Origin: Candidatus Pacebacteria bacterium GW2011_GWA1_46_10
GTDB lineage: Bacteria; Patescibacteriota; Microgenomatia; UBA1400; PJMF01
Reading direction: 5' to 3'
Length of the DNA stretch: 57,300 nt
Assembly: GCA_001002135.1 (NCBI GenBank)
Contig: LCLP01000003.1
Span: forward strand, 107,198 to 164,497
This document shows positions 2,675 to 55,051 of this stretch, in pieces. Position numbers and translations under genes: made by a program. Within the stretch, counting starts at the first letter, position 1. Every line of letters starts with the position of its first letter. A model generated the notes under the pieces. The model was not told where the DNA came from. It worked only from the letters and a program-made list of their open reading frames with translations, and made no database searches.

Positions 2675-4576
2675 TTACAAATTGCTCTCTTTACTAAAGA
2701 TGTCATCACTATTCAACTGATTCCCCCCAATTCTTATCAAAATATTATTAGCAACAGTTAATTGATCTTCTGCGGGTAAGAAAGGAAGAAGTGTGAAATA
2801 TAACTCACTTTCATTATAAAAAGTATCGCCGTATTTTTCATTCAATATACCAATTAGTCTGTCGGTGTTTTTAGTCAAATATATTTCTTTTAATTCATCC
2901 TCACCTATATCATCCACTATTTTTTCAATTATTTTCACAAGAACTGGATAACCAAGTTGTGTACTTATATTAAGTTCTTGCTTTATTGCCTTTCTAGCAA
3001 AGTATTCAGTTAAACCTTCCTCAAAAAACCCTGGCAAGACAGTTTCTTCGGAAACATAACTCGTATAGTGGAAGTATTCATGTACCAAAGTTGATAAATA
3101 ATCAGCTAATGTATTACTGCTTGTATAGTCCAAGGCTATTTTGATTATTTGATCTTCTGGCTGAAAAATACCAAGTTCATAGACAGTTTGCCCTTTTTGG
3201 GTTTCAATAAGTGTTACATAATATTCAAGATCTTCGTTTATTTGGTTCCATTCTGACGCTTCTGCCTGTGCTTGCCCAAGAATTGCTTGCCATTCTGAAA
3301 TTTCGTTTTGATATCCAATTACGATTGAATCCCACTGTCCTCTTACATTTTCACACTCTTGATCTGAATAGTATCTGTGAAATCCAGGTTCATAGTAATA
3401 AGTATAGTAGCCTGCACTTTTGCAATAATCATAATCAGCTTGTTGTTTATTTCTTGAATCCTGAACATACTGCTCTCCCAAGGTAATATTTTGTTTTGCT
3501 TGCGAAATTACCCCGTATATTCTATTTACCTCATTAGTTATTTCTGTTTGGAGATCTCTAACCTCTTTAATTTGTTCATTAAACATCGTCTCTCTATAAC
3601 TCAGGTATTCTTGTCTTCCTAATACTTCTATTTTTGGTTCACTCTTAACATATCTGTCTTCTAGATAATTTTTAACGTAAAGTTTGCCTAAAACTGGGCT
3701 AATTTTTTCTATCTCATCCTCATTTATTTTTCTAAAAACTAAACTATTCTTTACTATGACTAAATCAGAATTATTTTTAACAGTAGTAAAAACAAAATTC
3801 TCTGGTATTAAATTCAATACATTATTATTAAAGAATAAATTTTCAGAACTGTTGATTCCTTCATAGGCATCAACAATAGTTTTGCTAAAGTTCTCTTCAC
3901 CATTTCGAATCGTTGGCAAATTATTACTATCTTTTAAATAATTAACTACCTCATCTGCTCCCCATTTCACCTCAGAGGAATTATTAACCTTTATTGGTGC
4001 CCAATTTACTTGAACTAATCCAAATATCAAAGTAATTAACGGTGACAACACCCAAGCAGTTAATAATGTTAAACCCGTAAAACTAATTGCTTTTCTTATA
4101 TTTTGCTGTTTTCTATAAAGAATAAATACAAGAGCTCCTGATAATAATATTAAGACCAGCAAAATGTCTAATCTGTTAAAGAATGTGAAAAAAGTCGACT
4201 TAAAATAAGCTATAAAAATGTTATTTTCACTGCTGGCTTCTAATATTCTTAATGAAACAAATGTGAAAAAAACAGTAAATAATCCTACATAAATTAAAAA
4301 TATTTTATTATTTAACAATAATCTAAAATCAATATTTTTCACACCTTTCTTAATAGATAAATTTTTTAAATCAGGGAATTTTATTTTTGGCCTAGCTATT
4401 TTTTTATATGAAAGATCATATAAGTATCTATCAACAAAAATTGAAATGATTAAAACAACGCCAATTAATAGAAAAAAAGTGTCTTTGTAAAAGAAAGATA
4501 ACAAGAAAAATATAATTGAAATAATTATTGCAAGAGGATTTAGATTCTTCTTAATTTTCTTCTGTTTTTTTAACAT
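2675..4576 (-). CDS. Membrane protein with C-terminal gluzincin-like metallopeptidase motif
   Basis: Several hydrophobic helices, a coiled-coil-like middle and HEYFH...EEGLTE; AT-rich DNA. Confidence 0.7.
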   Translation of the reverse strand: MLKKQKKIKKNLNPLAIIISIIFFLLSFFYKDTFFLLIGVVLIISIFVDRYLYDLSYKKIARPKIKFPDLKNLSIKKGVKNIDFRLLLNNKIFLIYVGLFTVFFTFVSLRILEASSENNIFIAYFKSTFFTFFNRLDILLVLILLSGALVFILYRKQQNIRKAISFTGLTLLTAWVLSPLITLIFGLVQVNWAPIKVNNSSEVKWGADEVVNYLKDSNNLPTIRNGEENFSKTIVDAYEGINSSENLFFNNNVLNLIPENFVFTTVKNNSDLVIVKNSLVFRKINEDEIEKISPVLGKLYVKNYLEDRYVKSEPKIEVLGRQEYLSYRETMFNEQIKEVRDLQTEITNEVNRIYGVISQAKQNITLGEQYVQDSRNKQQADYDYCKSAGYYTYYYEPGFHRYYSDQECENVRGQWDSIVIGYQNEISEWQAILGQAQAEASEWNQINEDLEYYVTLIETQKGQTVYELGIFQPEDQIIKIALDYTSSNTLADYLSTLVHEYFHYTSYVSEETVLPGFFEEGLTEYFARKAIKQELNISTQLGYPVLVKIIEKIVDDIGEDELKEIYLTKNTDRLIGILNEKYGDTFYNESELYFTLLPFLPAEDQLTVANNILIRIGGNQLNSDDIFSKESNL

Positions 4577-10961: not shown

Positions 10962-11747
10962 ATGACTGACAACGACACACAACACAACAACCAATCAGTA
11001 GTCGATGACCAAGTTGATTCCACTGCTCAGTCAACCGATACAGTATCAACTACCCCAGTCGCGGATGAGCAAACTGAACCCGTTGTTGAGCAATCGGCTG
11101 ACCAAGTACCCAGCCAAGCAACCGACCAACCAACCGAATCCCAAGCACCAGTCACTCCGCCGGAGAAACAAGAGGTCAAGGTCGACGCCACCAATGTAGT
11201 CATCATCTCAGATGAGGAGAATAAAAAAGCCCGCTGGTACGTCGTGCACGCTTATTCTGGTCATGAGCGTAAGGTGGCCGAAGCCCTGAAACAGCGGGCG
11301 CAAACTCTTCACCTCACCAACAAAATTTTGGCCGTTCTCATCCCCACCCAGGAAAAAATTCAAATCCGCCGCGGTCAGCGCAAAACCGTCAAAGAAAAGA
11401 TTTTCCCCGGCTACATGCTGGTCAACATGGAAATGACTGATGACGCTTGGCTGGCAGTGCGCACCACACAGGGTGTCACTGGCTTTGTCGGCATGAGCAG
11501 TAAACCAACTCCTCTCCCCAAGCACGAAGTCGAGGCCATTCAGAAGTACATGAGCCAAGCCGAACCACAATTTAAGGCCGACTTTGTCGAGGGTGAAGCA
11601 GTCAAGATTACTGATGGACCATTCGCTGATTTCTTGGGTACCGTGGACTCAATTGATGAAGGAAAAGGGCAAGTCAAAGTACTGATTAATATCTTTGGCC
11701 GTGAAACACCGGTCGAGATGGATTTCCTCCAAGTACAGAAAGTGTAA
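10962..11747 (+). CDS. nusG: Transcription termination/antitermination factor NusG with N-terminal extension
   Basis: WYVVHAYSGHE, FPGYMLV and IFGRETPVE motifs; about 85 aa low-complexity N-terminus. Confidence 0.96.
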   Translation: MTDNDTQHNNQSVVDDQVDSTAQSTDTVSTTPVADEQTEPVVEQSADQVPSQATDQPTESQAPVTPPEKQEVKVDATNVVIISDEENKKARWYVVHAYSGHERKVAEALKQRAQTLHLTNKILAVLIPTQEKIQIRRGQRKTVKEKIFPGYMLVNMEMTDDAWLAVRTTQGVTGFVGMSSKPTPLPKHEVEAIQKYMSQAEPQFKADFVEGEAVKITDGPFADFLGTVDSIDEGKGQVKVLINIFGRETPVEMDFLQVQKV

Positions 11748-11751
11748 AAGA

Positions 11752-11848
11752 AAGTTAATAGTTTAAAGTTAATAGTAAATTTTTAAAAAATGGACGTGTT
11801 AAAATACCCCTTTCGAAACATCTATTAACTATCAACTATTAACTAACC
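11752..11848. repeat. Heptamer-periodic inverted repeat, copy 2
   Basis: AGTTAATAG units and CTATTAACT units flank a loop containing TGtTAAAAT (11797-11805). Confidence 0.7.
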
Positions 11849-11852
11849 AACT

Positions 11853-12278
11853 ATGGCAAAAAAAGTACAACAAGTTCTCAAACTCAATCTGCCGGCTGGG
11901 GCGGCTACTCCCGCACCCCCGATTGGTCCGATTTTAGGCCAAGCCGGCATCAACATGATGGAGTTTCTGAAACAATATAACGATGAAACCAAAGACAAAC
12001 GCGGTCAGGTTATTCCGGCTGAAGTCACTGTTTACCAAGACAAATCATTTACGTTTGTCCTCAAGTTACCGCCTGTTTCTGACCTCATCAAACAGCAACT
12101 CAAACTCCAAAAAGGCAGCAGTGACCCCAAGAAAGACATTGTTGGTGAACTGACTATAGATCAAGTCAAGGCTATTGCGGAAAAAAAGCTCCCTGACCTG
12201 AACACTACCAATCTCGAAAACGCCATTAATACAGTCAGCGGCACTGCCCGGAGTATGGGGGTGAAAGTCAAGGAGTAA
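11853..12278 (+). CDS. rplK: 50S ribosomal protein L11
   Basis: PAPPIGPILGQAGINMMEF...GTARSMG. Confidence 0.98.
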   Translation: MAKKVQQVLKLNLPAGAATPAPPIGPILGQAGINMMEFLKQYNDETKDKRGQVIPAEVTVYQDKSFTFVLKLPPVSDLIKQQLKLQKGSSDPKKDIVGELTIDQVKAIAEKKLPDLNTTNLENAINTVSGTARSMGVKVKE

Positions 12279-12286
12279 GGAACACG

Positions 12287-13015
12287 ATGGGTACAACTCG
12301 CAATGTAGACATGTCCAGCCAAGAGGTGAAAGTGAAAAAAGTCACCGCTCCGGCGGGCACAACCGAGGAAACTCCGGTTGAAGACGAAAAAGCGGCTAAG
12401 ACCCCAGCCAAGCCCCGCAAAATCCACGTCCGCAGTCAAAAGTACACCGCGATCAAGTCTAAAGTCGACCGCAACCGCAAGTATGACGCTTTGTCTGCCG
12501 TCGAGCTGATCAAACAACTCTCCTATGCCAAATTTGGAGGGACTGTCACAGCCGACGTAGAAGTCATTAGTACTGACGTCACGGCAGAGGTTACCCTCCC
12601 TCACCTTACTGGTAAACAGCAAAAAGTGGTGATTGCCGACGACACAATCCTCAAACAAATCGAGGCCGGTCAGCTGGACTTCGACGTGCTGGTGAGCTCC
12701 CCGCAGTTCATGCCAAAACTGGCCAAATATGCCCGAATCTTGGGTCCCAAAGGTCTGATGCCTAATCCAAAAAATGGCACCCTGAGCCCTAACCCAGAGC
12801 GCGCAGTTAAGGAGCTTGCCGCCGGCAAACAAATTATCAAAACCGAGAAGAAACAACCGTTGATGCACATTTCACTGGGGAAAACCTCAACCGAGACAAA
12901 AGCACTGATTGAAAACCTGCGCGCGCTCTATTCCCCACTCAAAAATAAAGTAATCAGCATCACCATCTCGTCCACCATGAGTCCTGGGGTAAAAATCGAC
13001 ACCGAGACCCTCTGA
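12287..13015 (+). CDS. rplA: 50S ribosomal protein L1
   Basis: LGPKGLMPNPKNGT and SSTMSPG motifs; N-terminal extension and shortened core. Confidence 0.95.
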   Translation: MGTTRNVDMSSQEVKVKKVTAPAGTTEETPVEDEKAAKTPAKPRKIHVRSQKYTAIKSKVDRNRKYDALSAVELIKQLSYAKFGGTVTADVEVISTDVTAEVTLPHLTGKQQKVVIADDTILKQIEAGQLDFDVLVSSPQFMPKLAKYARILGPKGLMPNPKNGTLSPNPERAVKELAAGKQIIKTEKKQPLMHISLGKTSTETKALIENLRALYSPLKNKVISITISSTMSPGVKIDTETL

Positions 13016-15228: not shown

Positions 15229-17049
15229 TTAGTGTTTATCAACCACTTTTTGCCGAATTTCCTTGACAAGAGTGGCTACTTTCAGCGTTTTTTGTGAACC
15301 ATCTTTCTGACGGACATTAATGCTTTTACTGTCCATTTCTTTATCACCAACGATGAGCATGTAGGGGATTTTTTCCAGTTGCGCGTCACGGATTTTGGCT
15401 GGCAGGCGCTCCGGTCGATCATCGATTTCAACCCGAATTTGATTTTCTGCCAAACTTTGCCGCAATTCTCGGGCATATTTCAGATGCCGATCAGCAATCG
15501 GTAAGATCCGCGCTTGCACAGGCGAGAGCCACACTGGAAACGCGCCGGCGTAGTGCTCGATGAGAATTGATAAAAAGCGCTCGATCGAGCCCATCACGGC
15601 CACGTGAATCATCACCACCCGTTCCTGTTCGCCTTTTTCATTAATACAAAACAAATCAAAGCGCTCCGGCATGTTAAAGTCGAGCTGAATGGTGGCCACT
15701 TGCCACTCGCGGCCAAGCGAGTCATAAGCCATAAAGTCTAATTTGGGACCGTAAAAAGCGGCCTCCCCGATGGCTTCGATCGGTTTCACGCCGCGGGCCT
15801 TGGCCAACTCTCGCAGTTGTTTTTCGGCTGCTCGCCACTTCTCTTCTCCACCAAGATACTTTTCTGGTTCGGCTGGATCATGGAGCGACAGGCGTGGCCG
15901 CAACTCAAAGTCAAAGACCTTATAAAAAGCCTCCACCACATCCCAAACCGCATTGACTTCAGCTACCACTTGGTTCGGGCGACAAAAAACGTGGGAATCA
16001 TCTTGGGTAATCGACCGTACCCGAGACAAACCGCTCAGTTCACCTGTCTGCTCGTCACGATAAACCATCGTCGTGGTGGCGTAGCGCTGTGGCATCTCAC
16101 GGTAACTAAATTGCCTACGAGCAAAGATCTGGGTGTGATGCGGACAGTTCATCGGTTTCATCACAAATTGATGACCCTCTTTGGTAGTCATCCTAAAAAG
16201 CTCGTCGCCGAACTTGTCCCAATGACCGCTGACTTCGTAGAGATCTTTTTTGGTAATGTGTGGTATCTCAACTTGCTCATACCCTTTGGCTTGTCGCAGT
16301 GACCAGACAAACTCATCCAGTAGATTGCGGACAATCGTACCTTTGGGCGACCACAAGGGTAAACCGGGTCCCACCAGATCAGAAAAGCTAAATAAATCCA
16401 GTTCGCGGCCTAGTTTTTTATGATCGCGCTTTTTGGCTTCCTCAATTTTGAAGATGTAACTGTCTAACTCCTCTGGTGATGTAAAGGCGGTGCCGTAAAT
16501 GCGAGTGAGCATTTTATTCTTTTCATCCCCGCGCCAATAGGCGCCGGCAATGCTCAATAGCTTAAAGGCTTTAATTTCACTGGTTGAGCGCGCGTGTGGT
16601 CCATCACAGAGGTCCATGAAAGGAGAAGTGATCTTTAGTTCGCCTTTTTTGAGGGTTTTTTTATCAGCTTCGATTTGTTCTTTCGTGCCGGTCAAATAGA
16701 CTTTTGGCTGTTTCCCCTCTTTTTCAATCTCAGCCAACCATTCTTGTTTATACAAGTTGTCGGCAAACAGGTCGCGAGCCACGGCCAGTTTTACTTCCAC
16801 CGGGTGCATCACTAAACCTTGATTGATGATGCGCTGCATCACTTTTTCAATTTTTGGAAAATCACCCTCAGAAATTTTGAAGTCTTCCGGACTGTCAAAA
16901 TCAAAGTAAAAGCCTTCATCCGTGGCCGGACCCATAGCCATCACTACTCTGTCCGCGCCAAAAAGCTCGTGCATGGCCATCGTCAACACATGCTCCGCGG
17001 TGTGGCGAATCTTTAATAAATGATCTGGGTCATTTTCTTGCTTGACCAT
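15229..17049 (-). CDS. thrS: Threonine--tRNA ligase
   Basis: RHTAEH editing motif, DLCDGPH, RDHKKLG, KPMNCP, EAAFYGPK and GSIERF; start at ATG 17049 with an AAGGAG SD. Confidence 0.98.
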   Translation of the reverse strand: MVKQENDPDHLLKIRHTAEHVLTMAMHELFGADRVVMAMGPATDEGFYFDFDSPEDFKISEGDFPKIEKVMQRIINQGLVMHPVEVKLAVARDLFADNLYKQEWLAEIEKEGKQPKVYLTGTKEQIEADKKTLKKGELKITSPFMDLCDGPHARSTSEIKAFKLLSIAGAYWRGDEKNKMLTRIYGTAFTSPEELDSYIFKIEEAKKRDHKKLGRELDLFSFSDLVGPGLPLWSPKGTIVRNLLDEFVWSLRQAKGYEQVEIPHITKKDLYEVSGHWDKFGDELFRMTTKEGHQFVMKPMNCPHHTQIFARRQFSYREMPQRYATTTMVYRDEQTGELSGLSRVRSITQDDSHVFCRPNQVVAEVNAVWDVVEAFYKVFDFELRPRLSLHDPAEPEKYLGGEEKWRAAEKQLRELAKARGVKPIEAIGEAAFYGPKLDFMAYDSLGREWQVATIQLDFNMPERFDLFCINEKGEQERVVMIHVAVMGSIERFLSILIEHYAGAFPVWLSPVQARILPIADRHLKYARELRQSLAENQIRVEIDDRPERLPAKIRDAQLEKIPYMLIVGDKEMDSKSINVRQKDGSQKTLKVATLVKEIRQKVVDKH

Positions 17050-17120
17050 AGTAGCTCCTTTCATTGTACTTGAGTTTTACGCTTGTTCCAATCTCGTTCC
17101 AATCGCCCATTTTTAAGCAC

Positions 17121-17148
17121 TAAAAAACCCTCCGATTTCTCTGGAGGG
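17121..17148 (-). terminator. Intrinsic terminator of the thrS attenuator
   Basis: CCCTCC-agagaaatc-GGAGGG followed by TTTTTT, about 70 nt before the thrS start. Confidence 0.85.
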
Positions 17149-17180
17149 CCGTGTCTCTCTACAACAACCACACCCCCCCC

Positions 17181-17225
17181 TTAGCGGGTGGTAGTGGTGG
17201 CAGCAAGAGAGAGTCTGATTAACAT
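17181..17225 (-). CDS. thrS leader peptide MLIRLSLAATTTTR
   Basis: ATG TTA ATC AGA CTC TCT CTT GCT GCC ACC ACT ACC ACC CGC TAA: four consecutive Thr codons; TACAAT 7 nt upstream. Confidence 0.85.
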   Translation of the reverse strand: MLIRLSLAATTTTR

Positions 17226-17277
17226 TGAGTGAATTGTATACCAAGTATCAAGCAAAAGAAAAGTAGTATCTGTGTAG

Positions 17278-17739
17278 TCAACCCTGTGCGGGTTGCAGTT
17301 TTTTCCTTTTACGAAGATAAAGTTGTAAACAAATTGTCGCAAAAACAGCAATTAAGACAAAATAAACCACTGCCCCACCCCAAACCAACATCACCGATAA
17401 CTGATCTGTCGCCACATACCACCCATTATCTCTCGCTATTTTCCATAACCAACTCGAACTACCCCAGGAATGACCGGCTGTAAAGAGAAAAACAAAAAAG
17501 AAGCTGAATGGCTCCTTGAGTCTTTTCATCGCCCAATACCAAAAACCAAACCAGACTAATGAACCAAAAAGAAATAACCAAGGAGAAAATAACAAAGCGT
17601 AATAAGCGGGACTCGCCTCATTGACCACTCTCCCCGACCAATACTGCGCATCTTGACCCACTAAAGTCACAATTCCATCAACCAGTGCCGGCAATAAAAA
17701 GGCAAAAAAGAGCGGGTTTTTGGTAAGTAACTTCATCAC
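17278..17739 (-). CDS. Hypothetical integral membrane protein
   Basis: 153 aa with about four hydrophobic helices; coupled to the upstream DUF2207 gene. Confidence 0.7.
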   Translation of the reverse strand: MMKLLTKNPLFFAFLLPALVDGIVTLVGQDAQYWSGRVVNEASPAYYALLFSPWLFLFGSLVWFGFWYWAMKRLKEPFSFFFVFLFTAGHSWGSSSWLWKIARDNGWYVATDQLSVMLVWGGAVVYFVLIAVFATICLQLYLRKRKKLQPAQG

Positions 17740-19712
17740 CCCGCTCCGCCGCCGCCTCCCCCACCGCCGCCACCACCACCACCGGAAGAACCACCCGATG
17801 AACCGGAGCCAGAGGCGCCAAAGCTGCTGGTGGTTGAGCTAGAAAGTGAAGACAGTGCTGACGAAACCGAGCCTAAGGCTTGCCCCAACGAGGCAGTTTG
17901 ACCAGCCGCAAACCCTGGAGAACTGCCGGTCGTAACGCCCCAATAGGTCGCGGCACGGTTAAATTCTTTTTGATTAAATTCGATGGGCAGCTGCGACAAG
18001 GCCTTGGCCGACACGCCAAACAATGTGCCATACACTAGGTATTTTTCCCACAAAATCACCGAGTCGATGGGATATTTTTTCGTCTGCTGGTAGTCAATCA
18101 TGTGTCGCTTAAACGCTCGCCACAATGATGCTTCACGCAGACCCTGCTCAGTCCGCCACAGGGCATTGGTGCGCAAAACAGCAATGATCAGTAACACTAC
18201 CCCTGGAAAAATCAACTGAAACTGAATGAGTAGCGGTAAAAACACTCCCGAGGATTCAATGTATCGACTGTCGGCTGCCATCAGGCCATACACCACATAC
18301 ACGCCGATCATCACCAACACCAACTTGCCAAACTTTCGCAGTGGTGTAAAAAACTTCACCGCTCGCTTTGGCTCAAACATCCCCTGTGCCACGTTGTCCT
18401 CGAATGCCTCCCTACCAAGTCCTTGCAAGAAATAGTAGGCGCCGTTGCGATGACTTTTGCTGTACTTGGTTAACTGATTAAACCAAACCGTCTTCGTTCC
18501 ACCGCCAACGGTGTTAAAAATATAGTCAAATACTTTTTGCTGCACAGCCGTCAAAACTTTCTGCTTCCCCGTTTGTGCAAAACCGTATTCGTATTGCTTC
18601 ACCAACCACCCTTTTTGTTCACTACTGCGAGTAATCTTGACCACTTTTTGCTGAACGAGTGAGAGAGCAGTGGCCGTAAAAACCTTGGCTGATAGGTTTT
18701 TGGAGCCAGAAAGCAACTGCTCCACTAACGCCGGCTCCAAATCACTGGGCGGTTCCCAAAACCGATCGGCTTGATTAGCTGGCGGGATACGCTGCACATC
18801 AAAACGCAGATAATGCACAATTTCCCAGATCACTACCACCCAGACTGCCAGCAGTAGTCCACTCGCGATCAGCGTAAACCAACCTTGCATTTTGTTGGCT
18901 TGAATAGTGCGGGCAATAAACTCACTTTCCTGATCGGCAATTAATTCCCGGGAAGCGCTGCCGGCTGCCCCACCGGTCATGATCGATTTTGGAAAAATAA
19001 CTCTCCCCTCAGTAAACCGGCCAGCTGGATTTCGATCCAGTTGAAACGTGACTGTCTGATCATCGACAATCGTCACCGTCCCACCCTGTACCTCATGCAT
19101 CCACGACTGGATCAGTGTCCCATCAATTCCCTCTGGGAGTGTGACGGTGATGAAGATATTTTGCTGGCTGATTTCCCACTCACTTCCAATAAACTGCCAG
19201 TAAAGCTCCGCCACGTTTTCATGAAGAGTAATGGCGTTATCGACGATATAGCTCAACGTAAATGTCTTGGGTTCGAAGTTCGCACTGAAGTGCCACTGAA
19301 GATAGGTTCGCTCATTATCTTGAACCACCGTAAACGTGCCGGGCGGATTCTCACGCCGCTCCTCTAGATTGACCTCACTGGCAGGTAAAAACGAATAGCA
19401 CCCCAGTTCATCACACACACTTTTAACTCTGATTTGGTAAGGTTCTGAGCGATGTGGATCAAGCGCTTGATCCGGCCGGTGGTAAATATCTTCGTAAGCA
19501 AATTTGAAATCATCCTGGAAATCATAGACACGCTGCTCGGTCACCTCCATCGAGCCGTCAGGCTGCACTATGGCATTAATCAAAACCGAGTCAATGCTGT
19601 ACTCTTTCGCTTGTACTTGAGGAGAAAAAACGAGCGCGGCGCCAAGGAAAAGAGCGACCAAAAAAATCATTTTCTGCCACCAACTAACCCCGTTGCGCAC
19701 CATAAACTTCAT
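17736..19712 (-). CDS. DUF2207 family membrane protein
   Basis: I.PDGSM.V.E.R, ELYWQFIG.EW, WEKYLVYGTLFGV and a Gly/Ser-rich tail; start moved to ATG 19712 (or 19703). Confidence 0.85.
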   Translation of the reverse strand: MKFMVRNGVSWWQKMIFLVALFLGAALVFSPQVQAKEYSIDSVLINAIVQPDGSMEVTEQRVYDFQDDFKFAYEDIYHRPDQALDPHRSEPYQIRVKSVCDELGCYSFLPASEVNLEERRENPPGTFTVVQDNERTYLQWHFSANFEPKTFTLSYIVDNAITLHENVAELYWQFIGSEWEISQQNIFITVTLPEGIDGTLIQSWMHEVQGGTVTIVDDQTVTFQLDRNPAGRFTEGRVIFPKSIMTGGAAGSASRELIADQESEFIARTIQANKMQGWFTLIASGLLLAVWVVVIWEIVHYLRFDVQRIPPANQADRFWEPPSDLEPALVEQLLSGSKNLSAKVFTATALSLVQQKVVKITRSSEQKGWLVKQYEYGFAQTGKQKVLTAVQQKVFDYIFNTVGGGTKTVWFNQLTKYSKSHRNGAYYFLQGLGREAFEDNVAQGMFEPKRAVKFFTPLRKFGKLVLVMIGVYVVYGLMAADSRYIESSGVFLPLLIQFQLIFPGVVLLIIAVLRTNALWRTEQGLREASLWRAFKRHMIDYQQTKKYPIDSVILWEKYLVYGTLFGVSAKALSQLPIEFNQKEFNRAATYWGVTTGSSPGFAAGQTASLGQALGSVSSALSSLSSSTTSSFGASGSGSSGGSSGGGGGGGGGGGGGAG

Positions 19713-19720
19713 GATACAAT
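19693..19720 (+). promoter_or_regulatory. Sigma70-type promoter for rplJL
   Basis: TTGCGC-16 nt-TACAAT with a TG extension, overlapping the start of the divergent DUF2207 gene. Confidence 0.55.
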
Positions 19721-19731
19721 ACTTTTCGTTT

Positions 19732-19781
19732 CCGAAGACAGTGTGTCCCCGATGAAATCGGGGTGAAATACCACACCGAGG
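19732..19781 (+). promoter_or_regulatory. L10 leader (ribosomal protein autoregulatory RNA)
   Basis: CCGAAGACAG-TGTG...CACA-CCGAGG matches the L10-leader core, with an inner CCCCGAT/ATCGGGG hairpin, upstream of rplJ. Confidence 0.75.
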
Positions 19782-19877
19782 AGAAATCAGTACGCCTCCG
19801 CGTTTTATTTCCCTCTTTTTGTATTTCACTCTCTTCGCCAACAGCACATTAAAGTAACAGTTAAGTAAAGGATTTGT

Positions 19878-20396
19878 ATGCCAAGTAAACGTAACTTGGA
19901 GGGTGTCAAAACCCTGCAAGAAAAGTTTGCTCAAGCTAAATCAGCGGTGTTGGTCAATTACGAAGGCACTTCCGTCAATGATCAGGTGGAACTGCGATCA
20001 GCCCTGACAGTGGTCGGTGGTGAAATGTTTGTCACCAAAAACACCCTGATTGATCATGCTCTCGGGAAAGGGAAATGGACTGATTCCCTGAAAGGCATGA
20101 ATGCGATCGTCTTCTCGTACCAGGACGCCATTGCCGCCATCAAAGCGCTTTTCCAGTTCCATGAGGACCGCGAAAAACTCGAGATTAAGCAAGGTGTGAT
20201 GGCTGACAAAATTTTGTCAGCTGAGGAGATCGAAGCCTTGAGTAAACTGCCAAGTAGACAAGAACTTATGAGTATGTTGGTCATGCGTTTGAAAGGTCCC
20301 TTGTATGGCCTGACAAACGTCTTGAAAGCCGGCCCCAGAGATCTTGTTTATGCCCTGCGCGCGATTCGTGATAATAAAAGCGAATCAGCCGTGTAA
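19878..20396 (+). CDS. rplJ: 50S ribosomal protein L10
   Basis: LRSAL...VTKNTL and LSKLPSRQEL motifs. Confidence 0.96.
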   Translation: MPSKRNLEGVKTLQEKFAQAKSAVLVNYEGTSVNDQVELRSALTVVGGEMFVTKNTLIDHALGKGKWTDSLKGMNAIVFSYQDAIAAIKALFQFHEDREKLEIKQGVMADKILSAEEIEALSKLPSRQELMSMLVMRLKGPLYGLTNVLKAGPRDLVYALRAIRDNKSESAV

Positions 20397-20409
20397 AAGT
20401 AAAAGTTAA

Positions 20410-20453
20410 AAGTGAATAGTTAATAGAATCTATCAACTATCAACTATGAACTG
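20410..20453. repeat. Heptamer-periodic inverted repeat, copy 3
   Basis: ATAGTTAATAG-AAT-CTATCAACTAT with the same AGAATCT core as copy 1. Confidence 0.8.
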
Positions 20454-20462
20454 AAAGGATTT

Positions 20463-21026
20463 ATGTCAGATACCCAAAAAGCCGCAGCCCTCAAGGCTGA
20501 AGAGGCCAAGACTGAAGAGGTCAAAGAAGAAAAAGCTCAAGCTCCCGCGGCGCAAGCTCCAAAAGCTGAAGTAAAAGTGGAAGCTAAAGCCGAAGAAAAA
20601 GTAGCAAAAACGGAGAAAAAAGAAAGTAAGAAACTCTCCGCGCCAGTCAAGAAAATCGTTGACGCTGTCAAGGAAATGTCCTTGATGGAAGTCTCGCAGC
20701 TCGTCTCGGCTCTCGAGGATGAGTTTGGCGTCAGTGCAGCCGCACCGATGATGATGGGCGCCATGCCCGCCGGAGCAGGTGCCAACGGCGCTGCCCCCGC
20801 CGCCGAAGCGCAGACTGAGTTCGACGTTATCCTAAAAGATGGTGGTGCCAATAAAATCGGTGCCATCAAGGCCGTCAGAACCCTCAAACAAGAGCTTGGT
20901 CTGGGTGAGGCTAAAGCCTTCGTCGAGTCTGCTCCTAAAACCCTTTTAGAGGGTGTGAGTAAGGAAGAAGCCGAGGCTGCCAAGAAAACCTTGGAAGAAG
21001 CCGGCTGTGTGGTGGAACTGAAGTAA
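20463..21026 (+). CDS. rplL: 50S ribosomal protein L7/L12 with N-terminal extension
   Basis: [24 protein letters not shown] and LGLGEAK; about 55 aa Ala/Glu/Lys-rich extension. Confidence 0.96.
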
Positions 21027-50299: not shown

Positions 50300-50314
50300 C
50301 GTTCAGTCTATTTT

Positions 50315-50361
50315 AACTACCAACCACTAACTATCAACTATGAACTCTAAACTATTCAACT
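50315..50361. repeat. Heptamer-periodic repeat, single arm, copy 4
   Basis: AACTATC-AACTATG-AACTCTA-AACTATT units upstream of leuS. Confidence 0.7.
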
Positions 50362-50711
50362 TTCTTTTTGTGCAAAACTGGTGGAAAAGTAACCTTCCAT
50401 AAGTAACTTCGGCTATTATTCACGCATCATTACAAGGACTATAGTGACTTAGCAAAATCGGTCTTTATTACCGCATTATTCACGATTTATTACCGAATAA
50501 TCTGGTACATCGATTAACGCAAAAATAAAAATATTGATATTAATACTATTTTGTATATCTTACTGTTTTTACTTTTCTTACATTTTCAAAAACCCGAAGT
50601 AACTTTCTAACATACCGAAAAAGAATCAGAAAAAAGAAAAAGAAAAACCAGAGTAAAAATAACCTTAAAATAAGTCAATCAAAAGGAATCAAACCAAATT
50701 ATGAATATTAC

Positions 50712-52039: not shown

Positions 52040-55000
52040 ATGCCACGGCAGCCTGCCCGCTCCACCCTCTCCGCCCGCGAAAACACTGCCTTTTCCACAA
52101 GTCAGTCGTTCAATACGCCAAACACCCAAACTAAACCCATTAATTTCGAGAAACTGCTGGAGAAATACCTTAACAGCTTAGCGGCTAACGGGACGGCCGA
52201 CGCCACCATCAGAAATTATCGCAGTGATATTGCCCAATTTCTCTCGAGTGTACCGGATCAAAACTCCCTCAACTCTGGTGAACTACGAAAACAGCTTGTG
52301 GAAAAATTTCTCCTTTCCCAGAGAGAAAAAGGCCTCAGTGCAGCCACAGTGCGCCGGAAATTAATCAGCACCACCCAATTCCTGCAGTGGGCTGCCCAAA
52401 CCAGTACCCCTCCTGCTCGGGCGACCACTCGATCAATCACTCAGCCAACTACTCAACTGACTACTCAACCGACCGCCTTACCTCAGAGTAGCCCTCTCCC
52501 CACCGTTCCGGCCGGAAAGCCAGCAGAAGTCTATCTCATTCCTCTGGCCATTGAAAAAGTTCTCAACCAATACCTGACTACGCTCAAATACAACTCGGCT
52601 TCTGACGCCACCATCAGAAACTACCGCAGTGACATCAAGCAGTTTGCTGCCTTCATCAGGGAAAAAACCATCGACACACTGCTGGTCCTCAATAACCTCA
52701 AGCGGTTCGCCCTCTCCCAGAAAGAAAAAGGACTCAAGGCGACCTCAGTTCAACGAAAGTTGACCAGTATCACCCAATTCGCCCTCTGGGCACAACGGCG
52801 TAAATTGATCCCGACCGCCAGCAGCGACTGGTCATCGACTGCCTTAGACAGTGTTTTTTTCCCTACCTCAGACAGCCCGATTGTGGTGACCGCTCCCACT
52901 CCAGACGAAACAGTAAAACTGGGCAAACGGAAACGGCTGAAAGAAGGCTGGTTGGCCGGCTTAGTGCTTTTGCTGTTGTTGTTTGGCAGTTCGATCGGTC
53001 TCTACCTAGTCCAAACAGTCCAAGAGCTGCGGCGTCAGGCCGCGGAGACCACTGAAGTCCCGACGACCGCTGCTCAGCAAATTGACTACTCCACCCTCAC
53101 TCAAGTACTCGAGGGAAATCACGCCATTCCATTTAGCGGCAAACTGTATAAAGACACCGGCGAACAAGTAACAGGTACCACGGTGGCATTTTTTAGTCTG
53201 TTGGACGGACCGTCTGATGAGGCCGAGGTCGTTTGGGAATCAGGCGCTTGTCAAGTCAAGACCGATTCTCAGGGTATTTTCAATATTAACCTGGGTGGAG
53301 GCACCGGTAGTGGGACTGACAATAGTGAGTGTGGACCCCCACTCTCCAATGACGTCTACTACGGCGAGAGTAACCTCTGGTTATTGCCAACGATCGGCGG
53401 TCAACAACTGGCTCTTTACCCAGTTAAAACGGTTTCTTACTCCGAAGACTCACAGCTACTGGACGGCGCACCACTTGGCAACCCGGTCATCAATGAGTCG
53501 GTGCTCTACATGAATGACCAGGGTGAAGTGCTATTTGCTGACGAACCAACTTTCAATGTGCCAGCGGGAAATCTCACTTTGGCTGGCGAAAATCTGTATT
53601 TTGTGACTGAAGGTAGGGGCGATATTTTGGCAGACAGCAGAATCATCGCTCCGAGTGCCATTTTTGGCGGTGGTGAACAATCACCACTCATCCTACTTCA
53701 GGGCGAAGAGAGCACTGCCCCGCTGTTGGACCTGCGCGATAGCCAAGGTCAACAGTTAGGGGTGATCGATATCCAGGGTCGACTGGGGCTGGGCACCACC
53801 ACCCCGCAAGGACTAATCGGACTGGGAGGTAACGGCGCCTATATCAGCGCCGATAATAACAACCTGGTTTTTTATGATACTGCCACCGGCACCGTCAAAA
53901 CTCTCTCCGACTTAGCGGCCGGCGGCGTGGACACCAACTTCTGGTCTCAATCCGGCACCTCGATTTACTACACTGGCGGTCAAGTAGGAGTCGGCACCAG
54001 CAGTACCGAACAGACCTTAACTGTGGGCGGCAACATCCAGTTGGGCACCACAGACGCCGACCGATATATCTACTTTGACAATGGCACTAGTGCCAACAGT
54101 GGTATCCGTTATAACGCCACCAACGACAAAATCCAGTTTAGCCATGATGGCTCAACTTGGAGTGATTTGGGTACGACTGGGGTTACTTCGGTCACTAACT
54201 CCGACGGTACGCTGACCATCTCGCCCACCACCGGCGCAGTCGTGGCCTCACTCAATCTCGGCCACGCTAATACCTGGACAGCCACCCAAACTTTCGCCGG
54301 TCTGACCGCTTCCGGGACCGTCACTTTCTCAGGTCTGAGCGCTGGTGTCGACAACACAGTCCTCGTCCTCAACTCAAGTAACCAACTGGTGACCGATGAA
54401 ATTGATAGTCGGGTTTGGGGAACTACCCTCGTTGACGGAACTGGGACCGCTGATTATGTAGCCTACTGGTCTGATACTGATACGCTGGCCGCGGAACAGT
54501 ACTTGGCCACTGCCCGAGGTGGCCTGGGTGGGAATGTGACGGCCCTTGGGGCTGGAGAGGTGTTGTACTCGACCGGCACTACTGCCTATGACTCACTGGC
54601 AGCTGGTTCTAGTGGGCAACTCTTAACTTCTGGTGGGGCAGCTGCTCCTTCTTGGAGTAACATCGCCTCCCTGCTGACTGCTGGTGATGACATTGTCTTC
54701 ATTGAAGACGGCGGCGATGTGGGAGTAGGCACTAACGCACCTGAACAAGACCTGACCGTGGCCAGCAACATTCAACTGGGAGTGACTGACGGAGACAGAT
54801 ATATCTACTTTGATAACGGCACACTCAGTAACGCTGGTTTTCGCTATAACGCCACCGGCGATCAAATGGAGTTTAGTAACGATGGTACCACCTGGACAGC
54901 TTTCAGCGACCTGACTTCCGGCCTGGTTACCTCAGTCAGCAACTCTGATGGCACCTTGACGATCTCACCCACCACCGGGGATGTAGTAGCTTCACTCAAT

Positions 55001-55051
55001 CTCAGTAACGCTAATACTTGGTTGGCGCTACAAACCTTCAACATGACCTAG
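52040..55051 (+). CDS. Giant repeat surface protein, fragment 1: two integrase core-binding (SAM-like) domains, TM helix and extracellular repeats
   Basis: Two copies of (A/S).ATIRNYRSDI.QF...K.L...(T/S)V.RKL.S..QF..WA, then a TM helix at about aa 305-325 and GxVGVGT repeats. Confidence 0.8.
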   Translation: MPRQPARSTLSARENTAFSTSQSFNTPNTQTKPINFEKLLEKYLNSLAANGTADATIRNYRSDIAQFLSSVPDQNSLNSGELRKQLVEKFLLSQREKGLSAATVRRKLISTTQFLQWAAQTSTPPARATTRSITQPTTQLTTQPTALPQSSPLPTVPAGKPAEVYLIPLAIEKVLNQYLTTLKYNSASDATIRNYRSDIKQFAAFIREKTIDTLLVLNNLKRFALSQKEKGLKATSVQRKLTSITQFALWAQRRKLIPTASSDWSSTALDSVFFPTSDSPIVVTAPTPDETVKLGKRKRLKEGWLAGLVLLLLLFGSSIGLYLVQTVQELRRQAAETTEVPTTAAQQIDYSTLTQVLEGNHAIPFSGKLYKDTGEQVTGTTVAFFSLLDGPSDEAEVVWESGACQVKTDSQGIFNINLGGGTGSGTDNSECGPPLSNDVYYGESNLWLLPTIGGQQLALYPVKTVSYSEDSQLLDGAPLGNPVINESVLYMNDQGEVLFADEPTFNVPAGNLTLAGENLYFVTEGRGDILADSRIIAPSAIFGGGEQSPLILLQGEESTAPLLDLRDSQGQQLGVIDIQGRLGLGTTTPQGLIGLGGNGAYISADNNNLVFYDTATGTVKTLSDLAAGGVDTNFWSQSGTSIYYTGGQVGVGTSSTEQTLTVGGNIQLGTTDADRYIYFDNGTSANSGIRYNATNDKIQFSHDGSTWSDLGTTGVTSVTNSDGTLTISPTTGAVVASLNLGHANTWTATQTFAGLTASGTVTFSGLSAGVDNTVLVLNSSNQLVTDEIDSRVWGTTLVDGTGTADYVAYWSDTDTLAAEQYLATARGGLGGNVTALGAGEVLYSTGTTAYDSLAAGSSGQLLTSGGAAAPSWSNIASLLTAGDDIVFIEDGGDVGVGTNAPEQDLTVASNIQLGVTDGDRYIYFDNGTLSNAGFRYNATGDQMEFSNDGTTWTAFSDLTSGLVTSVSNSDGTLTISPTTGDVVASLNLSNANTWLALQTFNMT

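Follow-up and report, generated by a model that had tools for sequence, protein, structure and literature searches.

The locus considered here, the region upstream of the threonyl-tRNA synthetase gene thrS in Candidatus Pacebacteria bacterium GW2011_GWA1_46_10, raises the question of how thrS is controlled in the Patescibacteria, or candidate phyla radiation (CPR), a group with tiny genomes, few recognizable regulators and largely no amino acid biosynthesis. In other bacteria the control of thrS is known: Firmicutes use a T-box, and Escherichia coli uses an operator that binds threonyl-tRNA synthetase (ThrRS). We analyzed a 57.3-kb stretch of contig LCLP01000003.1 (the window), in which thrS lies on the minus strand behind a short leader. 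A sequence-only reading had proposed that thrS is controlled here by a ribosome-stalling attenuator with Thr codons as its sensor. Our analysis supports this proposal through conservation of the leader, a coding signature in the Thr frame, covariation of the antiterminator (the 2:3 pairing) with the terminator, and a model of the switch. We conclude that a Thr-tRNA-sensing, ribosome-mediated attenuator very probably acts on the thrS transcripts that start at an upstream promoter, P1. The parts of the leader and of thrS are as follows.

17238-17233, minus strand: -10 box TACAAT of P1, separated from the leader ATG by a 7-nt spacer (17232-17226)
17225-17181, minus strand: leader open reading frame (ORF) MLIRLSLAATTTTR*, 14 codons, putatively leaderless, with its ATG at 17225-17223
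17198-17187, minus strand: Thr codons ACC ACT ACC ACC, codons 10-13 of the leader, the candidate regulatory codons
17180-17167, minus strand: G-rich sequence GGGGGGGGTGTGGT, abutting the leader stop codon
17154-17143, minus strand: ACACGG-CCCTCC, segment 3
17133-17128 and 17127-17122, minus strand: GGAGGG and T6, the terminator 3' arm and T-run
17154..17212, minus strand: predicted 1:2 hairpin (anti-antiterminator), with the stop codon in its loop
17143..17179, minus strand: 2:3 antiterminator, GGGGGG (17179-17174) with CCCUCC (17148-17143) and UGUG (17172-17169) with CACG (17153-17150)
17148-17122, minus strand: 3:4 intrinsic terminator, consisting of CCCUCC, a 9-nt loop, GGAGGG and U6
17055..17061, minus strand: Shine-Dalgarno (SD) sequence AAAGGAG of thrS, 5 nt ahead of the ATG
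15229..17049, minus strand: thrS, threonyl-tRNA synthetase, 606 aa, with Pfam domains tRNA-synt_2b, HGTP_anticodon and tRNA_SAD

All the parts that the sequence-only reading had picked out are present, as it described them. TACAAT stands 7 nt before the ORF with the ACC ACT ACC ACC run (17238-17181, minus strand), and the CCCTCC/GGAGGG-U6 terminator lies at 17148-17122. The 1:2 hairpin with its TCTCTC/GAGAGA extension belongs to the minimum-energy fold, and the 2:3 antiterminator, in which the G-run pairs with ACAC-GG-CCCTCC, wins once segment 1 is unavailable. The leader ORF reads ATG TTA ATC AGA CTC TCT CTT GCT GCC ACC ACT ACC ACC CGC TAA (17225-17181), and no SD-like sequence lies upstream of its ATG. 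In the 1:2 pairing, the Thr codons and CUCUCU face the G-run/UGUGGU and AGAGAG. The element is approximately 105 nt long and the whole cassette of P1, leader and terminator approximately 190 nt; a further 72 nt separate the end of the terminator from the thrS ATG (17049), a start codon that was set by aligning homologues. The 57.3-kb window was scanned for short ORFs between genes that combine a single-amino-acid run, a -10 box with at least 5/6 matches (spacing 5-10 nt) and a T-run no more than 90 nt away, and the Thr leader was the only intergenic ORF returned.

ThrS relatives are 45-76% identical to the window protein and all come from metagenome-assembled Patescibacteria, with Pacebacteria-type sequences closest, which supports assignment of the organism to the CPR. 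Reading the ten closest genome loci with sufficient upstream sequence revealed an identical order of parts in 10/10: a -10 box, 5-10 nt (~7), the ATG of a short ORF that contains a Thr run, its stop codon, a G-rich segment, a GC hairpin with a U-run, and thrS. The sequence of locus L008 begins only within the leader, and L012, the locus that follows in closeness, has no leader. Thr-rich leaders with a terminator behind them are kept across divergent Patescibacteria, with the parts in this order in relatives of 46-75% ThrS identity; Thr-rich ORFs were found upstream of thrS in 27 genome loci and 13 metagenome loci, with 4-7 Thr per ORF in the homologous leaders. For a controlled count we scanned 76 Patescibacteria thrS loci with at least 350 nt of upstream sequence for ATG-initiated ORFs of up to 30 aa containing at least 4 Thr in 7 residues. 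Such an ORF occurred on the sense strand in 23/76 loci; the controls gave 0 (antisense strand) and 0.44 (shuffled sequences), and no other amino acid rose above background in the same scan. The sequence-only reading had pointed to relatives as the place to look for Thr-rich ORFs upstream of thrS, and these 23 loci contain them; far from being unconserved, the Thr run is conserved. When a -10 box was also required, 5-10 nt upstream of the ATG, 22 matches from 21 loci remained in the 350 nt preceding thrS, and the same combined signature gave 0 matches elsewhere in 1.13 Mb searched on both strands.

Periodic ACN runs, sought with no ORF required, were present in 30 loci. Read in the Thr frame, 22 of these loci have an ATG in frame and reach a stop within 4 codons; read in the other two frames, 0 and 0 loci do. 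The AC of the ACN codons is fixed and the third position varies (T 51, C 52, A 44, G 8). As far as comparison of sequences can tell, this combination of frame and third-position pattern marks a Thr run that is translated, as opposed to an RNA motif. The N-terminal parts of the leader peptides are unconserved among homologues, and inspection of sequences and folds indicated that the C-terminal residues follow the RNA, with CCC before the stop codon pairing with GGG after it.

A -10-like hexamer lies 5-10 nt ahead of the leader ATG in 23/27 homologous leaders, an SD-like sequence precedes the ATG in 0/27, and several homologous leaders also have a perfect TTGACA -35 element spaced 16-17 nt. With its transcription start predicted from the promoter motif, the leader mRNA is probably leaderless. 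A -10-like hexamer 6-10 nt upstream, again with no SD sequence, is also found at the window gene starts 2605(-), 13041(+), 24652(+), 38101(-), 9367(-) and 50299(-). Because several ordinary window genes share this arrangement, leaderless mRNAs look common in the genome.

In 22-23/27 homologues, a GC hairpin and U-run are located 24-38 nt beyond the leader stop codon. The terminator arms differ by lineage (CCCUCC, CCCUCU, CCCCGC, CCCCUU, GCUCCCC and CCUCC), and the segment after the stop codon changes in step with them. As the subfamilies diverge too far in the length of the spacer and the register of pairing, alignment-free tests based on cognate and non-cognate duplex energies and on spacer shuffles were used; covariation analysis with MAFFT and RNAalifold recovered the terminator alone. 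Duplexes of segments 2 and 3 had a mean energy of -13.5 kcal/mol for cognate and -10.2 kcal/mol for non-cognate combinations (permutation p = 5e-5), and the corresponding values for the terminator arms were -11.6 and -7.4 kcal/mol. Duplexes of segments 1 and 2 were also stronger in cognate than in non-cognate combinations (p = 0.001), and the control pairings 1:3 and 2:4 displayed neither stability nor a cognate effect. By inspection, segment 2 often duplicates the 3' arm of the terminator, as with GGAGGG in L085 and GAGGGGUUU in L038, and a 1:2 hairpin like that of the window is predicted in homologues.

The minimum-energy fold of the leader RNA consists of the 1:2 hairpin, including CUCUCU/AGAGAG, and the terminator (-46.8 kcal/mol, z = -3.6 relative to shuffles). 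Taken singly, the 1:2 hairpin, the terminator and the 2:3 antiterminator have energies of -31.9, -14.1 and -18.1 kcal/mol, respectively; in the scan of homologue terminators, the window leader scored a stem of -11.0 kcal/mol followed by UUUUUU. With segment 1 barred from pairing, the antiterminator state (-22.6 kcal/mol; pairs G47-G52:C78-C83 and U54-G57:C73-G76) has a 5 kcal/mol advantage over the terminator state (-17.6 kcal/mol). The ribosome was represented by mRNA kept unpaired as far as 12 nt beyond the first nucleotide of the codon in the A site, in a model that treats equilibrium only and ignores the order of co-transcriptional folding. In the window leader, the modeled terminator probability is ~0.97 for the free RNA and about 0.8-0.9 with the A site on codons 2-9; it falls to ~0.0 on Thr codons 10-12 and ~0.1 on Thr codon 13, and returns to ~0.9 at the Arg codon and about 0.9-0.97 at the stop codon. 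Across one- and two-sided masks, the value with the A site at Thr codons 10-11 was 0.00-0.07. The position of the predicted switch coincides with the Thr codons, a correspondence that the model supports, and in the modeled geometry a stall on the Thr codons would free segment 2 and a ribosome at the stop codon would cover it.

This behavior is not confined to the window. A similar masking profile was obtained for L001-L007, L011, L028, L038, L039, L044 and L047, and 13/23 leaders switch by more than 0.5, compared with 1.35 expected when the spacer between stop codon and terminator is shuffled. The window leader itself switches by 0.97, and by 0.04 after spacer shuffling, with 0/40 shuffles reaching the real value.

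These data suggest the following mechanism. P1 would start the transcript at or adjoining the A of AUG 17225, and the leader mRNA would therefore be leaderless, with a ribosome translating the 14-codon ORF from its end. When Thr-tRNA is plentiful, the ribosome would reach the UAA and its footprint would cover the G-run; after release, the Thr codons would pair with the G-run in the 1:2 hairpin. In both cases CCCUCC would be free for GGAGGG, and the hairpin and U6 would stop transcription near 17122. When Thr-tRNA is scarce, the ribosome would stall as the first Thr codons occupy its A site, hiding these codons and exposing the G-run. Pairing of the G-run with ACACGG-CCCUCC (2:3) would then block the terminator, RNA polymerase would enter thrS, and more ThrRS would be made.

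Several observations weigh against an attenuator of this kind as the governor of thrS, and one of them is a promoter-like box that is conserved downstream of the terminator, through which thrS may be transcribed in a manner that bypasses the attenuator. The attenuator in the control scheme of the sequence-only reading holds up; this box between terminator and thrS had been overlooked. It comprises two features.

17063..17091, minus strand: candidate promoter P2 from a consensus scan, TTGGAA (17091-17086), 17 nt, TACAAT (17068-17063)
17072-17063, minus strand: invariant box CAAGTACAAT, between the terminator and thrS and within P2

The box CAAGTACAAT is invariant in 9 loci, in which its flanks vary in sequence and length, and TGGAAC, 16-17 nt upstream of it between terminator and thrS, is likewise invariant. 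Such invariance is greater than a -10 box normally requires. CAAGTACAAT is not a general motif of the genome and is confined to the closest clade, and a -10-like box between terminator and thrS was read in many more distant loci as well. The region 17127-17030 contains no significant RNA structure (z = +1.0). Judging from these motifs, P2 is probably the proximal promoter of thrS itself, and it would probably give basal expression independent of the attenuator. Should P2 prove to be a promoter, control by the attenuator would be limited to transcripts from P1. We also considered CAAGTACAAT as a mimic of the tRNA-Thr anticodon arm recognized by ThrRS and rejected it, as the box has no stem or significant structure and its loop match is weak: it agrees with the anticodon loops of the window tRNA-Thr genes, UUGGUAA and UUUGUAA, only at GUA.

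The closest relatives of the window locus, the metagenomic loci L081 and L082 (76% ThrS identity), also stand on this side of the balance, as they lack the entire leader cassette. They retain AGTGGAAC...CAAGTACAAT directly upstream of thrS (L081:1450-1500), and their upstream flank is common to L001. Comparison of L081:1180-1520 with L001:1000-1220 revealed a cassette of ~190 nt that is present or absent between common flanks (...GTCAAG / cassette / AGTGGAAC...). By this comparison, the attenuator behaves as a module that is gained and lost, and in the simplest interpretation the cassette would be an add-on supplying inducible transcription.

The remaining difficulties lie in the leaders, the model and the record of expression. 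Four loci (L017, L018, L026 and L036) have a Thr ORF with no recognizable terminator; their leaders (L017 at ~2890-3000) end in ...TTP*, a CCCC-NUAA-GGGG mini-hairpin surrounds the stop codon, and a TATAAT-like box lies downstream. With a two-sided ribosome mask, the antiterminator forms only for stalls at the first two Thr codons, and the 4 Thr codons of the window leader are at the low end of the family. The terminator is favored in every modeled state for L010, L025 and L035, and L009, L029, L052 and L055 prefer the antiterminator even as free RNA. To our knowledge, leaderless translation has no precedent in the CPR. Finally, no RNA run contains the locus, and 4 metatranscriptomes from the same studies gave zero coverage; its DNA is present in 20 DNA runs, mostly groundwater and soil metagenomes.

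The genes upstream of the leader differ between loci. They include a DUF2207 gene, which is found upstream only in the closest clade, tRNA-Val, and in L002 an apparent divergent gene start; the 153-aa gene of the window (17739-17278, same strand) has no homologue in any related locus. To judge by these neighborhoods, the leader cassette is linked to thrS and not to the upstream gene. In loci of the Microgenomates type, tRNA-Val(GAC) lies upstream of the leader (L044:2743-2817, L047:2742-2816, L052:2543-2617, L055:2186-2260), at a distance from the leader ATG of about 45-60 nt (L044, L047) or 210-570 nt (L052, L055), with tRNA-Leu(TAG) further upstream. The tRNA genes ahead of some leaders were considered as tRNA-Thr and were identified as tRNA-Val.

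How, then, do other explanations of the locus fare? The variable neighbors bear on the idea that the hairpin merely ends transcription of the upstream 153-aa gene and that the Thr ORF arose by accident. That gene does lie on the same strand, with no clear terminator of its own there, but leader and terminator are kept beside thrS behind differing upstream neighbors, the 153-aa gene has no homologue in the related loci, a promoter is predicted between it and the ORF, and the shuffle and strand controls for Thr are at or near zero; coincidence is effectively refuted. More can be said for the view that P1, ORF and terminator form an independent small gene, encoding a Thr-rich peptide or a trans-acting small RNA, with thrS expressed solely from P2 and no regulated read-through. 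The conserved promoter-like box between terminator and thrS and the cassette-free thrS of L081 and L082 fit such an arrangement, as does the appearance of thrS in some loci, where on reading the sequence it looks leaderless from a proximal -10 box, and trans-acting RNAs and peptides derived from attenuators are known in Sinorhizobium. What is conserved in the unit, however, is only the Thr run and the nucleotides that pair in the RNA, and the N-terminal peptide differs freely. The unit also always adjoins thrS on the same strand, with an amino acid that matches the enzyme, and an antiterminator that co-varies with the terminator would have no purpose unless read-through mattered. We consider a separate small gene improbable.

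An RNA-only sensor, in which the ACN repeats or the hairpin bind tRNA-Thr in the manner of a T-box, or ThrRS in the manner of the E. coli operator, and the ORF is untranslated, has in its favor the established use of both devices for thrS elsewhere, and UGGU in segment 2 could pair with the 3' ACCA end of a tRNA. Against it stand the frame data: it is in the Thr frame alone that an ATG, its -10 spacing and an in-frame stop are conserved, and the codons show free variation at the third position. Moreover, searches for a T-box gave no match at gathering score in the window or in 39 related loci, and none up to E = 10 in the surroundings of the leader. There is neither an anticodon-arm-like structure near the SD sequence (z = +1.0) nor, beyond the GUA match, a likeness of CAAGTACAAT to the tRNA-Thr loops. 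Sensing by RNA alone is in our judgment very improbable. A further possibility extends the attenuator instead of replacing it, namely that an independently evolved leaderless Thr module, gained and lost, is superimposed on a proximal promoter that is constitutive, so that thrS is controlled in two tiers, that the terminator-less ORFs of L017, L018, L026 and L036 act by a different, undescribed mechanism (possibly translation affecting the adjacent promoter or thrS translation initiation), and that CAAGTACAAT is more than a -10 element. Taken as a whole, we regard this extension as doubtful, and offer it tentatively beside the Thr-sensing attenuator on P1 transcripts that we favor.

Other observations were made in the window. 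Between 10962 and 21026, the nusG-rplA cluster (10962-13015) and rplJ-rplL (19878-21026) are split by a block of ~6.9 kb, which contains two unannotated genes on the plus strand and, on the minus strand, a 116-aa ORF, thrS, the membrane-like 153-aa ORF and the DUF2207 gene. The DUF2207 membrane protein (17736-19934, minus strand) has a long stretch of Gly at its C terminus (...SGGSSGGGGGGGGGGGGGAG). At the TTG listed as its start, the gene overlaps rplJ, which is on the opposite strand, and the true start is therefore probably further downstream. The AT-rich region of 410 nt upstream of leuS (50300-50711, minus strand) contains no Leu leader peptide and no T-box, and carries a repeated motif CGGTAATAAA..GTGAATAATG. 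Leader peptides for other amino acids were sought in the window and the related loci, and none was convincing. A 1003-aa protein at 52040-55051 on the plus strand has a Pfam match only to an N-terminal phage-integrase SAM-like domain (residues 40-120).

Among known systems, the classical attenuator of pheST in the gamma-proteobacteria is the closest in architecture. The E. coli pheST leader (pheM) and the window leader share an ORF of ~14 codons with codons cognate to the controlled synthetase, alternative 1:2, 2:3 and 3:4 hairpins, and an intrinsic terminator ahead of the synthetase gene; they differ in that the window codons are Thr and not Phe, that the window leader has no SD sequence and a putative leaderless start, and in phylum. 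Of the Rfam models, Phe_leader (RF01859) alone gave an alignment over the whole leader (17119-17226), at a chance-level 17.6 bits against a gathering score of 55 (E = 5). With a score so far short of the threshold, the resemblance lies in shared architecture and not in homology. The thr operon leader of E. coli, thrL (RF00506), uses tandem Thr codons as the sensor of a leader peptide attenuator. The window leader has such codons as well, but thrL controls threonine biosynthesis genes and also contains Ile codons, whereas the gene regulated here is the synthetase.

No Rfam family reached its gathering score in the window or in 39 related loci. This includes Thr_leader (RF00506), which also gave no match at E ≤10 in 16700-17700, and T-box (RF00230), which gave none at E ≤10 around the leader. 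The Firmicutes T-box and the E. coli thrS operator resemble the proposed attenuator in that thrS is regulated and the signal is tRNA-Thr charging or the ThrRS level. The T-box binds tRNA directly and the operator is an anticodon-arm mimic that binds ThrRS, and neither signature is found in the window; for the operator, no anticodon-arm-like hairpin lies near the thrS ribosome binding site (17127-17030, z = +1.0).

The sequence-only reading had presented attenuation of thrS as unprecedented. This part does not hold, as proposals in Streptomyces lividans (thrL-thrS; PMC8079986) and Deinococcus deserti (PMC4007540) precede it. In S. lividans TK24, leaderless thrL, leuL, trpL and alaL were proposed before thrS, leuS, trpS and alaS (PMC8079986). 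Like the window leader, which is probably leaderless, thrL is a short ORF directly before thrS and a proposed threonine-dependent attenuator; it starts on a leaderless transcript, has just two Thr, and its authors called termination unclear (PMC8079986). The CPR leaders, by contrast, have 4-7 tandem Thr, their terminator is a canonical GC hairpin with a U-run, the antiterminator co-varies with it, and such leaders occur in many genomes. No sequence relation is evident between Streptomyces thrL and the CPR leader, and the two likely arose independently. In D. deserti, leaderless leader peptides were proposed before synthetase genes, such as cysS, with a 5'-terminal AUG and a short peptide rich in the cognate residue (PMC4007540), an arrangement that is also probable for the window leader. 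Deinococcus belongs to another phylum, thrS is not named in the main text of that report, and the evidence there is transcription start mapping (PMC4007540), whereas ours is comparative. Classical attenuators have also been described for Streptomyces trpS and leuS (PMC1262725) and proposed for hisS paralogues in Bacillus (PMC2965389). Because attenuators of synthetase genes and leaderless leader peptides are already known or proposed elsewhere, the mechanism is of a known kind. The literature that we searched contained no description of a cis-regulatory attenuator in the CPR, and the thrS leaders represent a new, well-supported family of attenuator in a new phylum.

If this interpretation is correct, CPR bacteria monitor tRNA charging and use ribosome-coupled control of transcription, and they probably translate leaderless mRNAs. 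The thrS leaders would also provide an unusually clean comparative case, with thrS under leader-peptide control beside the T-box and autorepression solutions. The lineage with the cassette and its close relative without it would form a natural comparison, and the element of ~105 nt is compact and easily tested with a reporter. As the design recurs in many relatives, these reduced bacteria probably raise synthetase output when charged threonine tRNA is low.

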